Shown here piece after piece: positions 6,675-61,375 of a stretch of DNA of 64,000 nucleotides. How positions within the stretch are numbered: the stretch's first letter is position 1; each line of letters begins with the position of its first letter. Source of the DNA: Escherichia phage AV122. The notes under the pieces were generated by a model. It saw only the letters and a program-made list of their open reading frames with translations. It made no database searches and was not told the origin of the DNA. Made by a program: the position numbers and the translations under genes. The stretch is from the sequence record OR352952.1. One strand, 5' to 3'.

Positions 6675-6704
6675 ATAGTACCACGGAAGAACAGTCTTGT
6701 AAAC
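6675..6704 (-). promoter_or_regulatory. T4-type early promoter
   Basis: GTTTAC (6699-6704), 18-bp spacer, GG-TACTAT (6675-6680). Confidence 0.55.
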
Positions 6705-7180: not shown

Positions 7181-7210
7181 ATAGTACCACGGTCCTTGTG
7201 GTATGTAAAC
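7181..7210 (-). promoter_or_regulatory. T4-type early promoter
   Basis: GTTTAC (7205-7210), 18-bp spacer, GG-TACTAT (7181-7186). Confidence 0.55.
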
Positions 7211-7868: not shown

Positions 7869-8063
7869 TTATTTGAATTGTGCAATTCTTTTCTCTAAAC
7901 ATTCAGCATAAGATTTCATTGAGATAAACTGCGAAAGTAGCAGTTCTTGCTCAACTGCGTTAACTGTTAGAAACTTTGCGCTTTCTAAAAATTTACTCAG
8001 TGCATTAATTTTGAGCATTAATTGATCGTATTCTTCTTTTACTCGTGCTTGATAACCTAACAT
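7869..8063 (-). CDS. hypothetical protein (64 aa)
   Basis: ORF immediately downstream of rIIB and upstream of the hairpin. Confidence 0.5.
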   Translation of the reverse strand: MLGYQARVKEEYDQLMLKINALSKFLESAKFLTVNAVEQELLLSQFISMKSYAECLEKRIAQFK

Positions 8064-8081
8064 AATTTTCCTTAATGTGAT

Positions 8082-8097
8082 AAGGGCCGAAGCCCTT
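8082..8097 (-). terminator. CUUCGG-tetraloop hairpin overlapping rIIB stop
   Basis: aagggc-cgaa-gccctt; second copy of the same hairpin 230 bp from the first. Confidence 0.45.
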
Positions 8098-9034
8098 ATT
8101 TAAATTGTTCTGTAACGTCTTCAACTACTTCGTATTGGCAGGTACGCATTTTAGCATCGTTGTAATCAATCGGAATTGATACTACATCGCGAGGATGAAC
8201 TTTAACTTTTACAACTCGGCTGGTTGAACTGCCAAAGTGACGAATATAAGATTTAGAACACACATGCAGACCGCGAGAACAAGTTTGTGTATCATCGTCA
8301 TTCACACGAGTACGTGGCATTTTAACTACTTTACCCGGACTGTTATCAAAGGTGTTTGAGTGACAGTCAAAGTAATTGCTGCGAACTACTTTCCAAGCAT
8401 AGAAGTAACCATCTTCGGTGATTTCAATATCGTTTGCTACCAAGAAATCAAAGAGTCGAGATACCGCTTTTTGGCTTGGGTTTTCCAGCAGATTTTCCAA
8501 GAACGGAAAATAAAATTCAAAGTTTTCACCTTTTTCCATCGAGTCAAGAATACGATCAACCAAACCAGACCGCAATTCAATATTTTGATAGAACAAGCTT
8601 CCACCTTCAATTCGAACATCGCCGGAAATATATTTTTCAACAGCACGACGAACATTAATTTTTTGTGCCGCTTCTTCCAGCTTATCCGCTACAAGCAGAT
8701 TAAGAATTTCCTGGAAGTTTGAATGAGTATTAGGAGTTGCGTTATAAGTTACACCGTCAACAGTAATTGAAATGAATTTTTTAGATGCATTCCAAATAAT
8801 GTCAGATTTAGCAACTGGAGCAATAACTGCATCGCTATTAACTTTAACTGTAATGTCACCGCTAATAGTAACTTTAGGGCGTTTAGCTTCTTCAGCATTT
8901 TTCAAAACACGACGGATTGTGTCAACCGATACATCCTTCCAATAAGCCAATTCCTGTTGAGTGTAATTACCGCTTGAATACAGTTTAACAATTTCAGCTT
9001 GTTCGTTTTTGGTCAGGCATTTAATATTGTACAT
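8096..9034 (-). CDS. rIIB: rIIB protein
   Basis: 312 aa (same as T4 rIIB), directly downstream of rIIA; ATG verified at 9034. Confidence 0.88.
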   Translation of the reverse strand: MYNIKCLTKNEQAEIVKLYSSGNYTQQELAYWKDVSVDTIRRVLKNAEEAKRPKVTISGDITVKVNSDAVIAPVAKSDIIWNASKKFISITVDGVTYNATPNTHSNFQEILNLLVADKLEEAAQKINVRRAVEKYISGDVRIEGGSLFYQNIELRSGLVDRILDSMEKGENFEFYFPFLENLLENPSQKAVSRLFDFLVANDIEITEDGYFYAWKVVRSNYFDCHSNTFDNSPGKVVKMPRTRVNDDDTQTCSRGLHVCSKSYIRHFGSSTSRVVKVKVHPRDVVSIPIDYNDAKMRTCQYEVVEDVTEQFK

Positions 9035-11462: not shown

Positions 11463-11492
11463 ATTATACCACATCCTTGTGGTAAAGTAAAC
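11463..11492 (-). promoter_or_regulatory. T4-type early promoter
   Basis: GTTTAC (11487-11492), 18-bp spacer, consensus -10 TATAAT (11463-11468); 28/30 identical to the promoter at 56988-57017. Confidence 0.6.
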
Positions 11493-14851: not shown

Positions 14852-15121
14852 TTAATTGAACAGTGGAGCGATGCGTTTCAGAAGAGTAGCAGCACCTTTG
14901 GCAAATTTTACATCATGAAAAACAGTTTCTTCTTCCGTTACAACACGAGCTTTAATGTTTTCACAATCCCAATTTTTGCGAACAATCTTCAAAAGCTGCA
15001 GTAAATCTTTACATTCAGCAATATCGATAACACATCCACGAGAATCTTCCATTATCGCACGATAACCGTAAGCCATACCATAATCATTGAAAGATTGCTC
15101 GATGATAATTAAATTTTCCAT
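14852..15121 (-). CDS. hypothetical protein (89 aa)
   Basis: Trimmed to ATG 15121 with SD GGAGAA; the upstream part of the track ORF overlaps a promoter-like element. Confidence 0.5.
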   Translation of the reverse strand: MENLIIIEQSFNDYGMAYGYRAIMEDSRGCVIDIAECKDLLQLLKIVRKNWDCENIKARVVTEEETVFHDVKFAKGAATLLKRIAPLFN

Positions 15122-15162
15122 TTTATTCTCCAAGTTTTTCTGTATCAGTAGTTGATATTGAT

Positions 15163-15192
15163 ATAGTACCATAATCAACTACTGATGTATAT
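15163..15192 (-). promoter_or_regulatory. promoter-like element (T4 early type, degenerate -35)
   Basis: GG-TACTAT -10 context identical to other copies, but -35 is ATATAC rather than GTTTAC. Confidence 0.3.
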
Positions 15193-15217
15193 AGTTTTAT
15201 GAAAAAAATTTTAAACT

Positions 15218-15709
15218 TTATGCATAGCGAGCTTTGCTGTAGTGTTTAATCCAACTTTCAGGAATGACTTTGTATGTTCCTAAAAATACCGCGTTGTATA
15301 ACTTAACGCCATCTTCTACCCATTGATCAGTAATGTATGCACACATAGCGCGAGTACGGTTAACAACACCTTCCTCACCTTCAGTAAATTCAAACTCATA
15401 AGGAGCAACGAACTTGATAGCTTGACCGAGTTTCCACTTAAAGTCTACACCTACATGCGAAGTATCAATCGTTTCAATTCCTTTAGCGGGAACAGCTTTT
15501 AAAAACGCAGACTCAAGAAATTTCGCACGAACATAGCCAAACTGGGGTTTAGACTTTCCATCTTTAGGAATGATACGCACTTTTACTTCAGAATCTTCAT
15601 CTTTAACACCGTGTTTAAGCTGAATGCTTACAACTTCAACCAATTTTCCTGCTGCTTTAGAACGGGATTTATCAGATACACGAGCAATTTCACCGATATT
15701 AATAATCAT
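15218..15709 (-). CDS. hypothetical protein, paralog of 15786-16328 (motB-region)
   Basis: 163 aa; C-terminus ITDQWVEDGVKLYNAVFLGTYKVIP aligns with VTDQWIEDGVELLNVVHAGDFSVVP of the upstream ORF. Confidence 0.55.
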   Translation of the reverse strand: MIINIGEIARVSDKSRSKAAGKLVEVVSIQLKHGVKDEDSEVKVRIIPKDGKSKPQFGYVRAKFLESAFLKAVPAKGIETIDTSHVGVDFKWKLGQAIKFVAPYEFEFTEGEEGVVNRTRAMCAYITDQWVEDGVKLYNAVFLGTYKVIPESWIKHYSKARYA

Positions 15710-15753
15710 AGTTATCTCTCACTTGTTAAAAAGATTTTATACTCCACGGGACC

Positions 15754-15783
15754 ATTATACTCTGGTCCCAAGAGTTTGTAAAC
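15754..15783 (-). promoter_or_regulatory. T4-type early promoter
   Basis: GTTTAC (15778-15783), 18-bp spacer, TATAAT (15754-15759). Confidence 0.55.
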
Positions 15784-15785
15784 TA

Positions 15786-16328
15786 TTAATTCAAAATAGC
15801 TACCACTGCACTACGAGGTACTACGCTAAAATCACCTGCATGAACAACGTTCAGAAGTTCAACACCATCTTCAATCCACTGGTCTGTTACCCAACCACAG
15901 ACCGAAATAAATGGGGTCTTGATAGCTACTGCACGAGTCAAAAGGTCAGTAGGATCAACTTCTTGGAAGAGGATAATCTCTGCTTCAAAGACTATAGTTT
16001 TAATTACTTCATCATTATCTAAGCGATGTGCTCGAATCACGTAAGCTTTATTCTTATCATGCCAATTACTTTTTGAAAAACTTTTAACCACAAACTCACC
16101 TTCACCAAAAACACTGGTCAATGCTTTATAACCCAAATTTAGTTCAGTAGTTTTAATTTCAGTTTCAACCAGTTTGTAGGTTTTGCCAGTTTCGATGGTC
16201 CGAGCAGTCATAAATGTTTCCTTAATTTCTAATGGTTTAACAAGAGTGCCGTACATGCTTGCTATATCCATATCAAACGGTTTATCTACAGGATTCGGTG
16301 TGTATTCAGGATTATAATTAAATTTCAT
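15786..16328 (-). CDS. hypothetical protein, paralog of 15218-15709
   Basis: 180 aa; shared C-terminal domain with downstream ORF. Confidence 0.55.
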   Translation of the reverse strand: MKFNYNPEYTPNPVDKPFDMDIASMYGTLVKPLEIKETFMTARTIETGKTYKLVETEIKTTELNLGYKALTSVFGEGEFVVKSFSKSNWHDKNKAYVIRAHRLDNDEVIKTIVFEAEIILFQEVDPTDLLTRAVAIKTPFISVCGWVTDQWIEDGVELLNVVHAGDFSVVPRSAVVAILN

Positions 16329-34434: not shown

Positions 34435-34464
34435 ATAGTACCATGGAGGAACAGTCTTGTAAAC
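34435..34464 (-). promoter_or_regulatory. T4-type early promoter
   Basis: GTTTAC (34459-34464), 18-bp spacer, TACTAT (34435-34440). Confidence 0.55.
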
Positions 34465-54432: not shown

Positions 54433-54678
54433 TTATTCCTTAATTCCTAGTACTTGTTTAAAAGTCTCGTCGTAATCAAGACTTTGGCCCGTTTGTTCTT
54501 TATGTTTGTATATAATATCACTTACTTCTGATAGCATATTTTTATATGAACGAGTTAAAGCAGATTTAAGCACGCTGTATCTATCAGGAAATTTACCATG
54601 TTCATTATAATAAGCTATTGCTAATTCACGGACTGCCTTTTCAGCAGTCTCCATATATTCTTTACGCTTGGTCATTTT
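54433..54678 (-). CDS. hypothetical protein (81 aa)
   Basis: Trimmed to internal ATG (MTKRKEY...) to reduce overlap with the zinc-ribbon ORF. Confidence 0.45.
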
Positions 54679-54979
54679 CTTCTCGGTCAAATCGGTGTTT
54701 ACAATGGCGACATTTATAACGAAGATTACTAGTCTGCCAATGGACCAATTGCACCTGTTCAGTTCCACATTCAGGGCAATTAGGAACGTTTTTAGAAGCC
54801 CTTTCACGACGCTTAACCATAGCCATAATGGCATCCCATGCTGGAGGTTTAAAATCTAAATCGTCACAACCATGAATCTTTCCACGCATTTCCATATCAT
54901 CTTCCTCACCAGCCATAATAATTTTAATTAAACTGGAATTACTTGAAGCTGCAATGTCTTCTAATAGACGCTTTTTCAT
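54662..54979 (-). CDS. zinc-ribbon protein
   Basis: 105 aa; CPECG...CRHC four-Cys motif. Confidence 0.55.
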
Positions 54980-55905
54980 TTCAATACCTCAATAGCATTA
55001 CGTAAACCATTTGCTTTTGCATTAAGAGCTTTTAACAATTTGGTGTGTTCTGCAATTTGGGCTTCAACTTCAATCAAACGAGCATTGAGATATTCGCGTT
55101 CTTCACTCAGATTATCAACCTTTTCTACTTTAGGCTCTTTTACAACTGTCTTATATGTATTAGGGTTCTTCAGTTTAATTAGAATGCGTGAACTGTATAA
55201 CATTGAACCATTATCTTCGGTTTCGTCATACATTTCTACTACATCCATAATTTTTAACATCATGCGGAGTTTATAAGACAACGAACGAATAGTTTTGTTG
55301 TGCTTATTAATTTCTTTAGCTGTCATGGTGCCGAGATTACGTGAGTAATAATAAGGAACCTGGATATTAATTAATACTGATGAACCACCTGGCTTGTGTG
55401 TTACTTCATCAGCAATAACCCAATCCTTAACATGAACTGTATTTGTACGGTCATCGCCCGCGGTAAATAGTTTGCGAGCATGCTTAAAAAGCATATTCAC
55501 TTGGTCATTGAATTGACAAGCAAATTTATCAGCAAATTTAGTTTCAGGAATGGTAGATAACCAATCAGCCAAATGGGTCTTTTTAACATCGTTAACAATA
55601 GTAAATTCAACCAAATCAGTTATAGATGTCTCAGATTTAATAAAGCTCGGCTTCATAAAGTTTTTAATGTTATCGCGAGCTACAGTAGAAGATAACATAC
55701 GAGAACGTTTAAACCATTGAAGCAAATTGCCCAACGAATGAGAATAAGCGTTTTGAGTATCTTTACAGATATGATTTTCCTGGCCAACATATTGAAGGAA
55801 ATCACGAAGAATATTATTGATTACTGCTCTGTGTCCGATCTGATAATTACGGTGTTTAGTAATAAGACTGTCAAAATAATCAATATAATGTTTACGAGTT
55901 TTCAT
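54976..55905 (-). CDS. tandem paralog 1 of 4, coiled-coil-tailed protein
   Basis: 309 aa; C-terminal heptad-rich coiled coil ([39 protein letters not shown]); shared central motif with neighbours. Confidence 0.6.
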   Translation of the reverse strand: MKTRKHYIDYFDSLITKHRNYQIGHRAVINNILRDFLQYVGQENHICKDTQNAYSHSLGNLLQWFKRSRMLSSTVARDNIKNFMKPSFIKSETSITDLVEFTIVNDVKKTHLADWLSTIPETKFADKFACQFNDQVNMLFKHARKLFTAGDDRTNTVHVKDWVIADEVTHKPGGSSVLINIQVPYYYSRNLGTMTAKEINKHNKTIRSLSYKLRMMLKIMDVVEMYDETEDNGSMLYSSRILIKLKNPNTYKTVVKEPKVEKVDNLSEEREYLNARLIEVEAQIAEHTKLLKALNAKANGLRNAIEVLK

Positions 55906-55957
55906 ATTCTTCTCACTTGGTTAATGATTTATACTCCGAGCCATCCTTGGCTTTAAA

Positions 55958-56959
55958 TTACTTAATTAACTGTAAAGCTTGTTCAAGACGATCAAGACGA
56001 TTAACGGATTCTTCCCAAATCTTTTTAGCCTGCTCATATTCTTTCTGCGCTTTATTAGAAATTTCTAGAACTTCTTTATAAGCTTTTTCTAGTGCAATAA
56101 CTTCTGGACGAATTTCTACCGGTTCAGGAGAATCATCAAGATTATCCATTAGTTCCTCAAGGGTAGTTTCTTCTTTAGGAGTATTCACAATTTCATCACA
56201 TTTTTGTTGGTAAATTTCTTTATCAGTCGGTGAGTACGCACACTTTACTTCACGAAGACTAACTACAATTTTATATCCTTCCCAACCGCATATATTCTTA
56301 AAAGGATATGTATGAATATTTTCTACTGTTTCCATACAAAGTAATGCGGTCTCTAATTGACGAGTTATAGTGCTAGCAATTGAGAAAAATTTATTAATGT
56401 TCTTTTGGTTAGTTTCTGGTGTAAAAAATCCATAATTCACAAAAATAGCTACTTTATTTTTATCAAGTTCATATTCTTTTATGATAATCATATCAGAAGC
56501 CAAAGGATGAATTTGACGATAATCACCATAACATAATTTAGAAGCTGATTTTAGAATTTGCTTCTTAAAAAGTCTGAAATTACTAATCCAACGACGAGTA
56601 AAAATATTCTCAGGGTCTTCTTTATTATTAAGATGATAAGAATTAACATCACCGAACCAATTATATCCTACTACATCTTTGGTTCGTTTAATTTCTTTCC
56701 CAAAATTACCAAGAATATCCCGATTAACCAAATATGAAAGAAGACGAGACTCTTTAAAGGTTTTCTTGATAACATCTTTATCTACACGGCTAGAAATTTT
56801 ACGAATTTCATGAATAAATTTAGTAGAAGAAACAATACTTGCATCAACACTATTGAGCCATTGATTGATAATAGAAAGAACGATATTTTGACCAAACATC
56901 GGTATAGCTTTATCATCAATAACGCTATTGAATGATTTGATATATTCGTTACGAGTCAT
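55958..56959 (-). CDS. tandem paralog 2 of 4, coiled-coil-tailed protein
   Basis: About 333 aa from ATG 56959 (SD GGAGA); C-terminal coiled coil. Confidence 0.6.
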   Translation of the reverse strand: MTRNEYIKSFNSVIDDKAIPMFGQNIVLSIINQWLNSVDASIVSSTKFIHEIRKISSRVDKDVIKKTFKESRLLSYLVNRDILGNFGKEIKRTKDVVGYNWFGDVNSYHLNNKEDPENIFTRRWISNFRLFKKQILKSASKLCYGDYRQIHPLASDMIIIKEYELDKNKVAIFVNYGFFTPETNQKNINKFFSIASTITRQLETALLCMETVENIHTYPFKNICGWEGYKIVVSLREVKCAYSPTDKEIYQQKCDEIVNTPKEETTLEELMDNLDDSPEPVEIRPEVIALEKAYKEVLEISNKAQKEYEQAKKIWEESVNRLDRLEQALQLIK

Positions 56960-56987
56960 ATTAATCTCCTCATTAGAAAGTAAGAAC

Positions 56988-57017
56988 ATTATACCACATC
57001 CTTGTGGCGAAGTAAAC
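56988..57017 (-). promoter_or_regulatory. T4-type early promoter
   Basis: GTTTAC (57012-57017), 18-bp spacer, TATAAT (56988-56993); 28/30 identical to 11463-11492. Confidence 0.55.
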
Positions 57018-58042
57018 TAGTTTAGTGCATTTAGTGCATTGTTCAGTTTAGAACGTTGCTTTGTCAGATTTTGAACCCTTGACTGAGCTTGTTCTAACAC
57101 CTTTTCAGCTTCTAGCACTTCATTGGTCGCTTTAACGAGTTCATCATCTACTGCCTTAAGAGACTTCTCAATCGCGTCAGCGTGCCATTTTTCTACAGGT
57201 TTAAGACTCGGATTTTCAACAGGAAGAAAATTCACTTTATTGAATTTCCATGCATCATTATTACCTGAACTATACATCCAAAATTTAGAATCGTTTGATG
57301 AGCAATTGGATAAATTTAAATTTAAGTTATCTTGCACTTCTTGCTTTTTCTCTTGCGGGACTTCGTCCTTTCTCAAAAAATCGTATTTAAATGAAACAAT
57401 CATATCAAGTTCATATGTTGTCGTATCTAACTTAAATCGTTCAAAACGAGGTAAAATCTTAGAATGAACAGCGGCAACAACATCCATATACTTAAATGCT
57501 TCTGTCAACTGCGATTTAAGGCATTCGCAAATTGAAAGAGAATTTTTTGTATTAGGTTTAAAGCTAATTCGTGCAGTTCTATTATTTTCTTTAAATGGTC
57601 TTACTTCCATCTGAAGAGTATAACCATCAAATTTCAGATTCTTTAAGTTAATATCAGAACCTTTTAATCGACTAGCCGTCGACAAAATTTGCTTTAATTG
57701 TTTACGGAATAGAGCAATAAATCTCCATTCAATACGATAATGATTTGGATTGAAAAATCCTGTTGATAAATCGACCTTACTTTGACCAACGCCTTGAACA
57801 AATAGAGGATTTTTATAATCAATAGTTTTACAGAAATCGGTGAGCTGCTCACGAGCAGTCATTTGTGTAATATATCCCGCTTTACTAAAATGACGTAACC
57901 ATTCACTGCTATTCATATACTTAAAGTGAATGGAACTATTAACTCTATCAGGGTCTAAATTATTTTGGCACAAAAATGTCATAACATTACGGGTATAGCT
58001 GGCATTACGAACCATATCTTCAATTTGAGAACGAGTTTTCAT
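57017..58042 (-). CDS. tandem paralog 3 of 4, coiled-coil-tailed protein
   Basis: 341 aa; C-terminal coiled coil. Confidence 0.6.
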   Translation of the reverse strand: MKTRSQIEDMVRNASYTRNVMTFLCQNNLDPDRVNSSIHFKYMNSSEWLRHFSKAGYITQMTAREQLTDFCKTIDYKNPLFVQGVGQSKVDLSTGFFNPNHYRIEWRFIALFRKQLKQILSTASRLKGSDINLKNLKFDGYTLQMEVRPFKENNRTARISFKPNTKNSLSICECLKSQLTEAFKYMDVVAAVHSKILPRFERFKLDTTTYELDMIVSFKYDFLRKDEVPQEKKQEVQDNLNLNLSNCSSNDSKFWMYSSGNNDAWKFNKVNFLPVENPSLKPVEKWHADAIEKSLKAVDDELVKATNEVLEAEKVLEQAQSRVQNLTKQRSKLNNALNALN

Positions 58043-58050
58043 AGTGTTCC

Positions 58051-58965
58051 TTAAGATTTAAGTAAATCAACAATTTTAATTAATTTTTCACGCTCAGATT
58101 TAGCTTTACTACTCAATCCAGATAATCTGAAAATTTCATCGTCATATTGTTGAATAGAAATATTCAGCTCTTCAATTTGCTTATTAAAATAATCAATTTG
58201 TTCAGAATGTTTTTCGTTACTACGAACTGGTACAAGTTTTGTAGGCAATTTAGTTGAACTGGATTCATCCGGGCGATAAATTAAAATACAACTTGAACCA
58301 ATAGGGCATTTAGCACCAGATGAATATTCTAATGTTCCGGCTTCTTTTAAAACTTCAAAAGCTAAACAGAGATGATGCCCCATATTAACATAATCTGTAG
58401 AGTGAGCTCTGATATAATAATCATCGCCGCGAATACTAAATTTAAAGCATTTAAGGTCTTCTGTATTATTGGTCTTAAAAATCATTTGTTTATCTAGACC
58501 TTTAGCTAATCGAGCGCCTAATGCTAATAATCGTCGTTGATTTTCCCACAAATCCGCAATCATTTGATCGAATGATAATTTCGGCATTAGTCGACCATAA
58601 AGGTCATATCCTTTATTATAATTACGAAGGATTTCACTCGCGTTAATACGAGACAATGCTCCAATTTTATTAAGGGCTTTCATGATGCGATCAGATAAAC
58701 TCATTCCAGACCCGTTTGTTCGCTGTAAATGTTTTTCTAATCCAAATCCAATATCAACTTTAAATTTATCTAAAATTTCAGCATGAACATCTCTGTCAAT
58801 AACACTCAAATCCAAAGTTGTGTTAAATCTATGAAAAAATTTATCTGGCTCTCCACGACGAAATACAGTCCATTCATTCATCATTTTTTTTTTATTAACT
58901 AAAGATTTAATTACTGCATTGACATTATTAATTGCTACTGACATATTTTCCTCACTCAATTTCAA
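58051..58965 (-). CDS. tandem paralog 4 of 4, coiled-coil-tailed protein
   Basis: 304 aa; C-terminal coiled coil; weakest similarity of the four. Confidence 0.55.
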   Translation of the reverse strand: MKLSEENMSVAINNVNAVIKSLVNKKKMMNEWTVFRRGEPDKFFHRFNTTLDLSVIDRDVHAEILDKFKVDIGFGLEKHLQRTNGSGMSLSDRIMKALNKIGALSRINASEILRNYNKGYDLYGRLMPKLSFDQMIADLWENQRRLLALGARLAKGLDKQMIFKTNNTEDLKCFKFSIRGDDYYIRAHSTDYVNMGHHLCLAFEVLKEAGTLEYSSGAKCPIGSSCILIYRPDESSSTKLPTKLVPVRSNEKHSEQIDYFNKQIEELNISIQQYDDEIFRLSGLSSKAKSEREKLIKIVDLLKS

Positions 58966-59414: not shown

Positions 59415-59942
59415 TTATGCGAGTACCGTCTTTAACCGTTCTTCAAACTTCCGAAGAGTATTCTGGCGTTCAGCTCTTTGCTTTTTGTAAGTTTCAATAC
59501 GCTCTGAAATGAGAGTGTATCGTTCATTTACTGATTCTTTCATAAAATCAGGAATTTCACGAGAAGCTTTAATCTCATCAAATTTATCAATAACAGCTTG
59601 CTCTTCAGCAATTAAGTTATCATACATCAAAATATCTTTCTTGATGAACTCAATATCTTCTTGAGTTACACGAGATAATTTAGATGCTTTATCCTTTTTG
59701 TACTGTTCGTTAGTATCACGAGACCAGTGTAATGTACGATTTTTATTCGTATTTTTGTAAATTTCTACAATACCAATCTCATCAATAATAACGATCCAAT
59801 TCCAACGGGATTTGTAAATTTGTCCTCCATCAACCGTGATTTCACCTCCGATTGAGATGTCATTAAAGAACTTGCTTTGTGCTTCTGATTTAAATTTACC
59901 ATCATTGTAATTTACCAGGTTGAAAATATCTTTAGCGTTCAT
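59415..59942 (-). CDS. hypothetical protein
   Basis: 175 aa, C-terminal basic/helical region; SD GGAGG; downstream of promoter. Confidence 0.6.
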   Translation of the reverse strand: MNAKDIFNLVNYNDGKFKSEAQSKFFNDISIGGEITVDGGQIYKSRWNWIVIIDEIGIVEIYKNTNKNRTLHWSRDTNEQYKKDKASKLSRVTQEDIEFIKKDILMYDNLIAEEQAVIDKFDEIKASREIPDFMKESVNERYTLISERIETYKKQRAERQNTLRKFEERLKTVLA

Positions 59943-59970: not shown

Positions 59971-60000
59971 ATAGTACCACAGAGGAACAGTCTTGTAAAC
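59971..60000 (-). promoter_or_regulatory. T4-type early promoter
   Basis: GTTTAC (59995-60000), 18-bp spacer, TACTAT (59971-59976). Confidence 0.55.
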
Positions 60001-60406: not shown

Positions 60407-61375
60407 TTATTTCAGAAGAGTAACCTCAGCGATTTCTTCCCAACCGTTTTTGTCGGTCATAATAAAGTCAGCAAGATAAAGAGCAGTACGCAGTGAAACA
60501 TTGCGTAAACGATTAACATTGACTTTCATCCATGATAATGCTTTATAAGTTTCTTCATCAGAAAGACCACGCTTTTGCATCATGTCAGTTGAAAGAATAA
60601 CATCTTCAACCCTGACCATAATTTCTTCATTAGTGTGAACACCCAAATCCAAATAAACTGAGCGGGACACTAATGCTTGTAAATGTGGAGCAAGTTTAGT
60701 ACCACGGTCTAATTCGCGGTCAATGTCAACGTTTGTGATAAAAACAATCGTTCCTTTAAATTCAAACTCACGCTCAATGCCTTTTTCTTCTAAGTAAGAA
60801 GATGCAGTGCTCCAGCAGACTTTACGGGTCTCTCCAGTGTCCAGAGCAGCTTTCAGAAGATTAAGAATGTCCATATCAGAGAAAACATCCACATCATCAA
60901 TCAAAAGGACAGAATTCTCTTCACGATTATTCCAAAGTTGTTCATAAAGACCGATACCGGAGATTTTACCGTTAATGCTTTTATATTCAATGTATCCATT
61001 ATCATTTGCTTTATTTAAAGCTTTATCTAAAGAATACGTTTTACCAATACCCGCCGCACCAGAGATAATTAATGAACGAATATTTCCGTTAATAATACCA
61101 TTCGTCATCATTCCCATAACATTAAATCTTTTATTAATGCGGGTTTTCATATCTTCATACGATTCTTTAACTTCTTCAACTTTTACACCATCATATGAAA
61201 TGTCTGATTTGTAAACCCAAACACCACGACGTTTACCGTCAATTTCAACAAAAACTTTACCATCTCCTTGTGCATCTACCGGAGCATTATCTGGGAACCA
61301 TTCACCTAAGAGCTCAAAAGTTCCAGAGATTTCTTTACCGAAGTAGATACCCTTATTGATAGTTACAGTTTTCAT
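60407..61375 (-). CDS. P-loop NTPase (AAA-like ATPase) with N-terminal extra domain
   Basis: 322 aa; Walker A GAAGIGKT, Walker B LLIDDVD. Confidence 0.65.
   Translation of the reverse strand: MKTVTINKGIYFGKEISGTFELLGEWFPDNAPVDAQGDGKVFVEIDGKRRGVWVYKSDISYDGVKVEEVKESYEDMKTRINKRFNVMGMMTNGIINGNIRSLIISGAAGIGKTYSLDKALNKANDNGYIEYKSINGKISGIGLYEQLWNNREENSVLLIDDVDVFSDMDILNLLKAALDTGETRKVCWSTASSYLEEKGIEREFEFKGTIVFITNVDIDRELDRGTKLAPHLQALVSRSVYLDLGVHTNEEIMVRVEDVILSTDMMQKRGLSDEETYKALSWMKVNVNRLRNVSLRTALYLADFIMTDKNGWEEIAEVTLLK

Follow-up and report, generated by a model that had tools for sequence, protein, structure and literature searches.

Four tandem genes, nrdC.3 to nrdC.6, of a T4-like phage as ancient paralogs of one superfamily and a candidate counter-defence array

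Escherichia phage AV122 (sequence record OR352952.1) carries, within the 64,000-nucleotide stretch analysed here and referred to below as the window, four consecutive minus-strand open reading frames (ORFs) that are orthologues of nrdC.3, nrdC.4, nrdC.5 and nrdC.6 in the phage T4 reference annotation. These genes are best explained as ancient tandem paralogs of one protein superfamily restricted to the Straboviridae, and, because nrdC.5 of T4 has been published as overcoming the host defence protein Dsr1, its members probably serve counter-defence as a set. A sequence-only reading of the window had already proposed four paralogs of similar length and architecture, each ending in a coiled coil, and had suggested host-target binding or defence evasion; it was right in kind, in that the genes are paralogs tied to defence evasion, and wrong in degree with respect to their age, their promoter and the size of the family. 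The genes, lettered A to D for later reference, are (aa, amino acids):

54976..55905, minus strand: nrdC.3 orthologue, paralog A; 309 aa; from the ORF and the T4 annotation; phrog_1435
55958..56959, minus strand: nrdC.4 orthologue, paralog B; 333 aa from ATG 56959 (mechanical ORF 55958-56989); phrog_1435
57017..58042, minus strand: nrdC.5 orthologue, paralog C; 341 aa; Pfam DUF7235 (PF23882); phrog_2351
58051..58944, minus strand: nrdC.6 orthologue, paralog D; 297 aa from ATG 58944 (mechanical ORF 58051-58965); phrog_2257

The array lies between nrdC.2 and nrdC.7, inside the non-essential nrdC-to-nrdC.11 block. The window is from a Tequatrovirus: by megablast, the 4.1 kb of the array match Escherichia phage vB_EcoM_R5505 at 99.4% identity, and 656 phage records, of which almost all belong to this genus, match at 80% or more. 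Two start codons of the mechanical ORF list, those of nrdC.4 and nrdC.6, are probably too far upstream. For nrdC.4 the most likely start is ATG 56959, because (i) ATG 56989 sits within the -10 box of a promoter; (ii) a GAGGAG Shine-Dalgarno sequence stands before ATG 56959; and (iii) the PHROG alignment (from residue 11) and the homologue alignments begin there. For nrdC.6 it is ATG 58944, since a GAGGA Shine-Dalgarno sequence precedes this codon, which lies 8 nucleotides past the nrdC.7 stop, and since the majority of homologues have 296 aa. The corrected lengths are therefore 309, 333, 341 and 297 aa.

The four genes themselves have long been annotated, each with its own database family, and the window proteins are 60.9% (NrdC.3), 97.4% (NrdC.4), 93.8% (NrdC.5) and 92.6% (NrdC.6) identical to those of T4. 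PF23882 matched ORF 57017-58042 over its full length (expect value (E) 9.5e-119, 396.8 bits, cutoff 30) and did not match the window's NrdC.3, NrdC.4 or NrdC.6 at E up to 1, so these three lie outside this Pfam family. Full-length matches to phrog_1435 were obtained for NrdC.3 (E 1e-116) and NrdC.4 (E 6.4e-169), with NrdC.5 and NrdC.6 not matching this profile, and NrdC.6 matched phrog_2257 over its full length (E 1.2e-149). In precomputed annotations, all NrdC.6 homologues carry PF26899, and PF26897 is found on NrdC.4 homologues.

Pairwise BLASTP of all pairs yielded a single significant match, between NrdC.3 and NrdC.4 (25% identity over 226 aa of the globular part, E 2e-7); the other five of the six pairs were non-significant. 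On BLAST alone, the idea that the proteins resemble one another beyond the composition of their coiled coils half fails, and it is profile and structure comparisons made without the coiled coil that rescue homology. When family alignments, built from three protein searches and 14 related loci, were compared by hhalign, the NrdC.3 and NrdC.4 families were joined at 97.8% (E 1e-12), and NrdC.4 and NrdC.5 at 90.9% (E 1.2e-6) over 249 columns (NrdC.4 residues 65-326 on NrdC.5 residues 49-327) that include the globular domain. To exclude coiled-coil composition, we ran jackhmmer on the globular parts only, at a fixed Z of 1000; the database combined the proteins and ORFs of the window with those of every locus retrieved, 901 in total. 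Beginning with NrdC.4 residues 1-262, NrdC.3 entered at 3e-20, NrdC.5 at 3.6e-5 and NrdC.6 at 1.8e-4; beginning with NrdC.3 residues 1-235, NrdC.5 entered at 2.7e-9 and NrdC.6 at 5.6e-5. These globular-only searches recruited none of about 600 unrelated ORFs, the other recruits being obvious relatives from other genera. Searches begun from NrdC.5 or NrdC.6 stayed within their own family and reached no other paralog family.

The profile alignments place three collinear motifs in all four paralogs. The central one, which the sequence-only reading had picked out by eye, is real: QLETALLCMETVE of NrdC.4 is aligned by profile to QLTEAFKYMDVV of NrdC.5, KLRMMLKIMDVVEM of NrdC.3 and HLCLAFEVLKE of NrdC.6. 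Even the weak NrdC.4/NrdC.6 alignment is collinear and superimposes the three motifs, with SRLLSYLVNRDILGNF on GALSRINASEILRNY as the first, FKKQILKSASKLCYGD on NQRRLLALGARLAKGLD as the second and the central helix as the third. Furthermore, some proteins bridge the families: P0234 combines an NrdC.4-like head (E 5e-11) with an NrdC.5-like tail (E 8e-11), gp94 of Yersinia phage fHe-Yen9-01 weakly matches the NrdC.6, NrdC.3 and NrdC.4 families at once, and Klebsiella phage Roth51 L018:13145-14119 weakly matches those of NrdC.4, NrdC.3, NrdC.6 and NrdC.5. Over profile match columns the paralogs are only 10-24% identical, NrdC.4 being the sequence hub of the family and NrdC.6 its most divergent member.

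Almost no credence is left for the explanation that there is no family at all and that chance similarity and coiled-coil composition account for the resemblance. The five non-significant BLASTP pairs speak for it, but the one significant match falls in the globular part, and all profile results stand with the coil removed, while the control families NrdC.7, NrdC.8, NrdC.9 and NrdC.10 gave only E 0.33-0.83 against a globular profile of NrdC.3, NrdC.4 and NrdC.5 combined. We regard the homology of NrdC.3 and NrdC.4 as practically certain and that of NrdC.5 with these two as very likely; that NrdC.6 belongs with the others is likely. Two further candidates were rejected: NrdC.8 (59415-59942) as a fifth member, all profile comparisons giving E of at least 0.03, and a gene of about 260 aa upstream of the lone member in Karam-, Slopek- and Tegunaviruses as an NrdC.6 equivalent (hhalign E 0.4-0.65).

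All members seem to share one modular build: helices at the N-terminus come first, then an α/β domain and a disordered linker, and last an amphipathic helix of 45-55 residues at the C-terminus. AlphaFold2 models cover NrdC.4 (predicted local distance difference test score 83) and NrdC.6 (78), and the order of elements from the N- to the C-terminus is identical in the two: the N-terminal helical region is followed by a helix-helix-short helix unit (NrdC.4 residues 119-148, NrdC.6 residues 125-152), a β-hairpin, the long helix in which the central motif lies (NrdC.4 185-208, NrdC.6 188-201), a second β-hairpin, a low-confidence linker and the long C-terminal helix. In both models the helix with the central motif belongs to the α/β domain. 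A Foldseek search of BFVD with the NrdC.4 model found NrdC.6 of phage JS10 (E 1.2e-4, probability 1.0, template-modelling (TM) scores 0.37/0.43) and a 308-aa Tequatrovirus protein (E 2.4e-8), which we take to be of the NrdC.3 type. Six proteins of 304-335 aa are Foldseek targets of both the NrdC.4 and the NrdC.6 model; they are encoded by PM2, IME523, Acj61, Acj9, fHyAci03 and fHe-Yen9-01, which are T4-like phages of Pectobacterium, Enterobacter, Acinetobacter and Yersinia.

With these data the place of NrdC.6 can be weighed. It might be unrelated, resembling the others in its size, a simple ββαββα domain and a C-terminal coiled coil, in which case the true family would have three members. No BLAST signal was found for NrdC.6, its hhalign comparisons gave E 0.039 with NrdC.4 and E 0.08 with NrdC.5, the combined NrdC.3, NrdC.4 and NrdC.5 globular profile reached its family with E 0.0044 (controls, 0.2-0.8) and a probability of 7.8%, searches begun from it never left its own family, and the Foldseek TM-scores were only 0.37-0.5. 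However, two separate globular-only searches recruited it (E 5e-5 to 2e-4) with no false positives, the weak alignments superimpose the same three motifs collinearly, and the two models agree in the order of secondary structure; the Foldseek probability of 1.0 between the NrdC.4 model and JS10 NrdC.6, the six shared targets, the proteins of fHe-Yen9-01 and Roth51 that match several families at once, and the position of the gene beside the other paralogs also argue for membership. We consider a three-member family improbable. Modest TM-scores and large root-mean-square deviations would be expected with a flexibly attached long helix.

The 45-55-residue helix at the end of all four proteins contains much E, K, R and Q and hardly any proline or glycine, and in the AlphaFold models it stands as a long isolated helix (NrdC.4 residues 285-332, NrdC.6 residues 244-296). 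The predicted coiled coil was assessed with a home-made score of a/d positions (neither COILS nor MARCOIL) against 300 shuffles. NrdC.5 and NrdC.6 scored above all 300, whereas NrdC.4 (P 0.013) had its best window in the central helix instead and NrdC.3 was marginal (P 0.067). A terminal motif, L..A(I/L)..LK, was found in all four proteins and in distant members from other genera. In the NrdC.4 family, mean pairwise identity is 0.76 in the C-terminal helix as against 0.60-0.65 in the head.

The array had been suggested to result from diversifying duplication. The distribution of its members points to an older origin: the paralogs are 10-24% identical, and the order D-C-B is kept in the other T4-like lineages sampled, so the duplications are ancient rather than recent. 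The superfamily has a narrow range, and all relatives encountered are from T4-like phages. When 1.84 billion representative proteins were searched exhaustively by HMMER with the NrdC.3/NrdC.4 profile, only 10 matched, all of them NrdC.3/4-like; at the E-values of a library of this scale, neither NrdC.5 nor NrdC.6 was recovered. Searched by tblastn in the phage collection, the four proteins gave the following numbers of records:

NrdC.3: 653 records, at any identity
NrdC.4: 464 records, at 80% identity or more
NrdC.5: 495 records, at 80% identity or more
NrdC.6: 501 records, at 80% identity or more

Copy number varies from one to four across genera. Most Tequatroviruses have four copies in the order D-C-B-A (nrdC.6-nrdC.5-nrdC.4-nrdC.3); three (D-C-B) are found in loci L007-L015 of other T4-like lineages, including a genome like that of Escherichia phage vB_EcoM_005; three are likewise found in Mosigvirus phage SSE1, where an NrdC.3-type gene (L034 7996-8946) replaces NrdC.4; and representatives of Karam-, Winkler-, Slopek-, Teguna- and Lazarusvirus have one copy, or two at separate positions. 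The SSE1 gene led us to reject a restriction of NrdC.3 to Tequatrovirus, and, given this distribution of copy numbers, NrdC.3 and NrdC.4 are old alternative lineages rather than a recent duplicate. The members are not always in tandem: in Tegunavirus fHe-Yen9-01 (L016) they stand apart at 7943-8884 and 14929-15807, one upstream of nrdC.10 beside an nrdC.11-like nucleotidyltransferase and the other at the usual position. A family of four had also seemed large for a phage of this size. T4 has larger families of seg/mob endonucleases as well as the Alt/ModA/ModB trio, so four paralogs are not unusually many.

Within Tequatrovirus the array is unstable, with natural deletions and in-frame hybrids. 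Phage ACG-C40 (L031 4805-5216) keeps NrdC.6 alone, plus stumps of the others; Pinarejo (L032 6001-6141) has lost NrdC.6; and Manna (L033 5215-6252), which is without NrdC.5, encodes an in-frame fusion of NrdC.6 (residues 1 to about 270) to the last 83 aa of NrdC.4, joined at a shared DEI. Protein P0120 is an NrdC.5::NrdC.3 fusion, and at locus L006 9971-11003 NrdC.4 is frameshifted and split into two ORFs. Alleles vary as well. The window NrdC.3 belongs to a divergent allele class other than that of T4, being 81% identical to the SSE1 (Mosigvirus) copy as against 61% to that of T4 (L001 6934-7860), although the genes flanking it are 93-97% identical to those of T4. The synonymous divergence (dS) of NrdC.3 alleles reaches 1.1; this depth and the closeness to Mosigvirus are signs that recombination has replaced the allele, and suggest an exchange between genera at nrdC.3 alone. 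Outside the genus, NrdC.5 drops to 22-30% identity, while NrdC.4 retains 44-52%. The locus is thus a natural hotspot of presence/absence and allele swapping.

Pairwise ratios of nonsynonymous to synonymous divergence (dN/dS) were 0.12-0.33 for the four genes, 4-10 times the value of 0.03 for nrdC.8. Gene-wide positive selection is not what these values indicate; the four genes are under relaxed or locally diversifying selection.

The sequence-only reading had drawn attention to an early promoter inside the array and to its resemblance to one upstream of rIIA.1. The promoters concerned, and one further upstream of the array, are:

56988..57017, minus strand: early promoter before nrdC.4; TTTACT-N17-TATAAT with TG; reads GTTTACTTCGCCACAAGGATGTGGTATAAT
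11463..11492, minus strand: twin early promoter, outside the family, between the gene 39 stop and the rIIA.1 start
59971..59999, minus strand: early-promoter match upstream of nrdC.8; pattern match TTTACAAGACTGTTCCTCTGTGGTACTAT

The nrdC.4 promoter, whose -35 region adjoins the nrdC.5 stop codon TAG, scored 10/12 with TG in the promoter scan, and positions 56988-57016 fit TTTACW-N17-TAYWAT exactly, followed by GAGGAG and ATG. Its identity to the rIIA.1 promoter at 28 of 30 positions was reproduced, where chance would give 0. It is, however, ordinary for T4 early promoters and no distinguishing feature of the family, because near-identical early promoters are common in the window: TTTACW-N17-TAYWAT occurs at 16 sites, all on the minus strand, as against 0.46 expected, and other subsets are equally alike. 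The sites at 6675-6703, 34435-34463 and 59971-59999 share TTTACAAGACTGTTC.TC..TGGTACTAT, and the promoter at 7181-7209 has the CCACAAGGA spacer in common with those of rIIA.1 and nrdC.4. The consensus that these sites match is the published PeSL/T4 early-promoter type, and where T4/PST early promoters of this conserved kind stand in variable regions, the literature treats them as PeSL elements that are prone to recombination (PMC4122927). Judging from gene order and position, the promoter at 59971-59999 probably drives a transcript of nrdC.8, nrdC.7, nrdC.6 and nrdC.5, and that at 56988 would drive nrdC.4 and nrdC.3.

The published evidence on function concerns nrdC.5. In an evolution experiment with T4 on toxIN cells, a block that included nrdC.5 was lost from one clone, which was then unable to plate on ECOR17 (Srikant et al., eLife 2022, PMC9391042). 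Deletion of dsr1 in ECOR17 restored plating of that clone, and T4 nrdC.5 alone, in trans, restores plating of the deletion phage on MG1655 carrying ECOR17 dsr1 (PMC9391042). Dsr1 is a SIR2-domain defence protein that depletes nicotinamide adenine dinucleotide (NAD), and its sensor domain, which Avs7 has in common with it, reportedly recognises the major capsid proteins of phages (PMC13581612). In our literature searches we found no later work on the mechanism of NrdC.5 or on DUF7235, and nothing on nrdC.3, nrdC.4 or nrdC.6. The suggested role in defence evasion thus fits nrdC.5, the window copy being 93.8% identical to the T4 protein that overcomes Dsr1, and is extended to the other three by homology.

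The four are early, non-essential accessory genes, and counter-defence is their likeliest role. In the model that we favour, an immune protein of the host would be bound by the variable globular head, the defence overcome by NrdC.5 being Dsr1, a SIR2-type NADase; the C-terminal helix may oligomerise the inhibitor as a coiled coil, providing avidity or steric blocking; and NrdC.3, NrdC.4 and NrdC.6 would act on other host systems or on variants of Dsr1/Avs7-type sensors. Deletions, hybrids, copy number, diverged alleles and dN/dS raised relative to nrdC.8 support accessory behaviour resembling that in an arms race. Taken as a package (ancient modular paralogs that exert counter-defence by head binding and helix oligomerisation), we consider this model moderately probable.

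Homology, shared architecture, early promoters, natural dispensability and variable copy number and alleles were observed in this analysis. Several points weigh against the model. The functional evidence concerns NrdC.5 only, is genetic, comes from one paper with one Dsr1 allele, and is silent on mechanism and direct binding. The link of NrdC.6 is weak at the sequence level (hhalign E 0.039 with NrdC.4; E 0.0044 and 7.8% probability with the combined profile), the structure models cover only NrdC.4 and NrdC.6, with TM-scores of 0.37-0.5 and large deviations, and the heptad score of NrdC.3 is marginal by a home-made scoring. dN/dS is below 1 in every segment, in a set of 6-7 sequences that is too small for site tests. 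Finally, no protein matched any anti-defence, defence or solved-structure family above threshold: searches of Pfam, NCBIfam, PADLOC and PDB sequences gave nothing above threshold except the families' own DUF and PHROG entries, the PADLOC and NCBIfam matches being sub-threshold (BrxC, 13.7 bits; XerD-like N-terminal helices, 18 bits with a cutoff of 279). Residues 30-86 of NrdC.3 gave weak matches to XerD/integrase N-terminal SAM-like domains (E 0.075 and 0.0013), far below the cutoffs.

The same observations bear on the possibility that the genes are true paralogs of which NrdC.5 alone is a counter-defence protein, the others having unrelated roles in early host takeover or regulation, or being decaying copies that are partly redundant. 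This would agree with the rescue of the T4 deletion phage on cells with Dsr1, for which only nrdC.5 was needed, with an identity between paralogs low enough (10-24%) to leave room for different functions, with the frameshifted NrdC.4 of L006 and the deletion of NrdC.6, NrdC.5 or NrdC.4 in several natural isolates, and with none of the four matching a known anti-defence family. It agrees less well with the retention by all four of the same modular architecture under purifying selection (dN/dS 0.12-0.33), with the maintenance of the array in most Tequatroviruses (about 460-650 records for each gene), and with a polymorphism of presence/absence and alleles that is typical of host-range genes. We consider it rather unlikely. 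A more elaborate version of the counter-defence model, which we hold to be quite doubtful, is that the array is a combinatorial anti-sensor platform, in which each head would block a different fold-recognising receptor (Dsr1, Avs7-like or others), possibly by mimicking a conserved virion protein, while the shared helix, whose L..A(I/L)..LK end is kept even by members with heads that hardly align, would assemble the paralogs into homo- or hetero-oligomers. If this were true, one early complex would suffice against several defences.

Some features of neighbouring genes were also recorded. The product of nrdC.8 (59415-59942, minus strand, 175 aa) has a heptad-like C-terminal helix and is extremely conserved, its matches in other genera reaching E of about 1e-78 and its dN/dS being the 0.03 given above. 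nrdC.10 (60407-61375, minus strand, 322 aa) encodes a P-loop protein with sub-threshold matches to AAA and novel-STAND NTPases and has a much wider distribution than the genes around it, occurring in 1311 phage records, among them phages of Vibrio, Aeromonas and Acinetobacter and jumbo phages such as PA5oct and Atu_ph07. nrdC.2 (54662-54979, minus strand, 105 aa) ends in a double CxxC zinc ribbon, with many weak zinc-ribbon matches in Pfam; 4 nucleotides (ATGA) are common to its start and the stop of nrdC.3, which suggests translational coupling. The 133-aa ORF 54433-54834 (minus strand) is probably an over-extension overlapping nrdC.2, since T4 nrdC.1 encodes 80 aa (about 54433-54675). Many phage records call every nrdC.x ORF a 'thioredoxin', a name copied from the neighbouring nrdC, which we read as an artefact.

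A counter-defence phenotype has been demonstrated for only a few T4 genes, nrdC.5 with its effect against Dsr1 among them, and the three distant paralogs beside NrdC.5 are concrete and cheaply testable anti-defence candidates in the best-studied phage. The common build suggests a domain-level dissection, with the variable head as a putative specificity module and the conserved C-terminal helix as a putative assembly module, and the polymorphism of the array matters when the host range of T4-like therapeutic phages is to be predicted.

Among known systems, tail terminator or tail completion proteins (lambda gpU-like) offer one comparison. The α/β domain might imitate such a conserved virion protein, the early NrdC proteins serving as decoys that occupy fold-recognising sensors before the real structural proteins appear. 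Identity to gpU-like proteins is 3-15%, below the usual range of homology and with no sequence signal, and, unlike them, the NrdC proteins are early and cytoplasmic and have additional N-terminal and coiled-coil modules; we consider decoys of this kind very unlikely. In T6 (NC_054907), nrdC.5 is annotated as 'tail sheath stabilizer and completion protein'; this label was rejected as support for a tail protein and treated as an artefact, because it was copied from SHFML-26, where labels in this region look misplaced.

According to two reports (PMC10973363, PMC11087589), DSAD1 is likewise a phage protein that neutralises a defence-associated sirtuin NADase; its target there is DSR2, not Dsr1, and its likeness to NrdC.5 is offered as an analogy only. 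The dmd-tifA-adfA 'anti-TA (toxin-antitoxin) island' and the internal-protein (IP) locus of T4 are also early, non-essential clusters that determine host range (PMC9391042), lost or amplified by microhomology recombination and with conserved early promoters at their flanks (PMC9391042, PMC4122927). These clusters encode unrelated small proteins, whereas nrdC.3 to nrdC.6 encode homologous modular proteins of about 300-340 aa.

The closest known counterparts are the T4 genes themselves. ORF 57017-58042 is the orthologue of T4 NrdC.5 (DUF7235), with the same position and neighbours, the other three window genes being related to it only at the superfamily level, and T4 NrdC.3/NrdC.4 (phrog_1435) and NrdC.6 (phrog_2257; PF26899) have direct orthologues in the window in the same gene order. 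Union into one superfamily is a modest addition that refines existing knowledge and reveals no new kind of system. In the databases, phrog_1435, phrog_2257 and DUF7235 stand apart, each of unknown function; the present analysis unites them and adds a modular description and a catalogue of natural hybrids and deletions.

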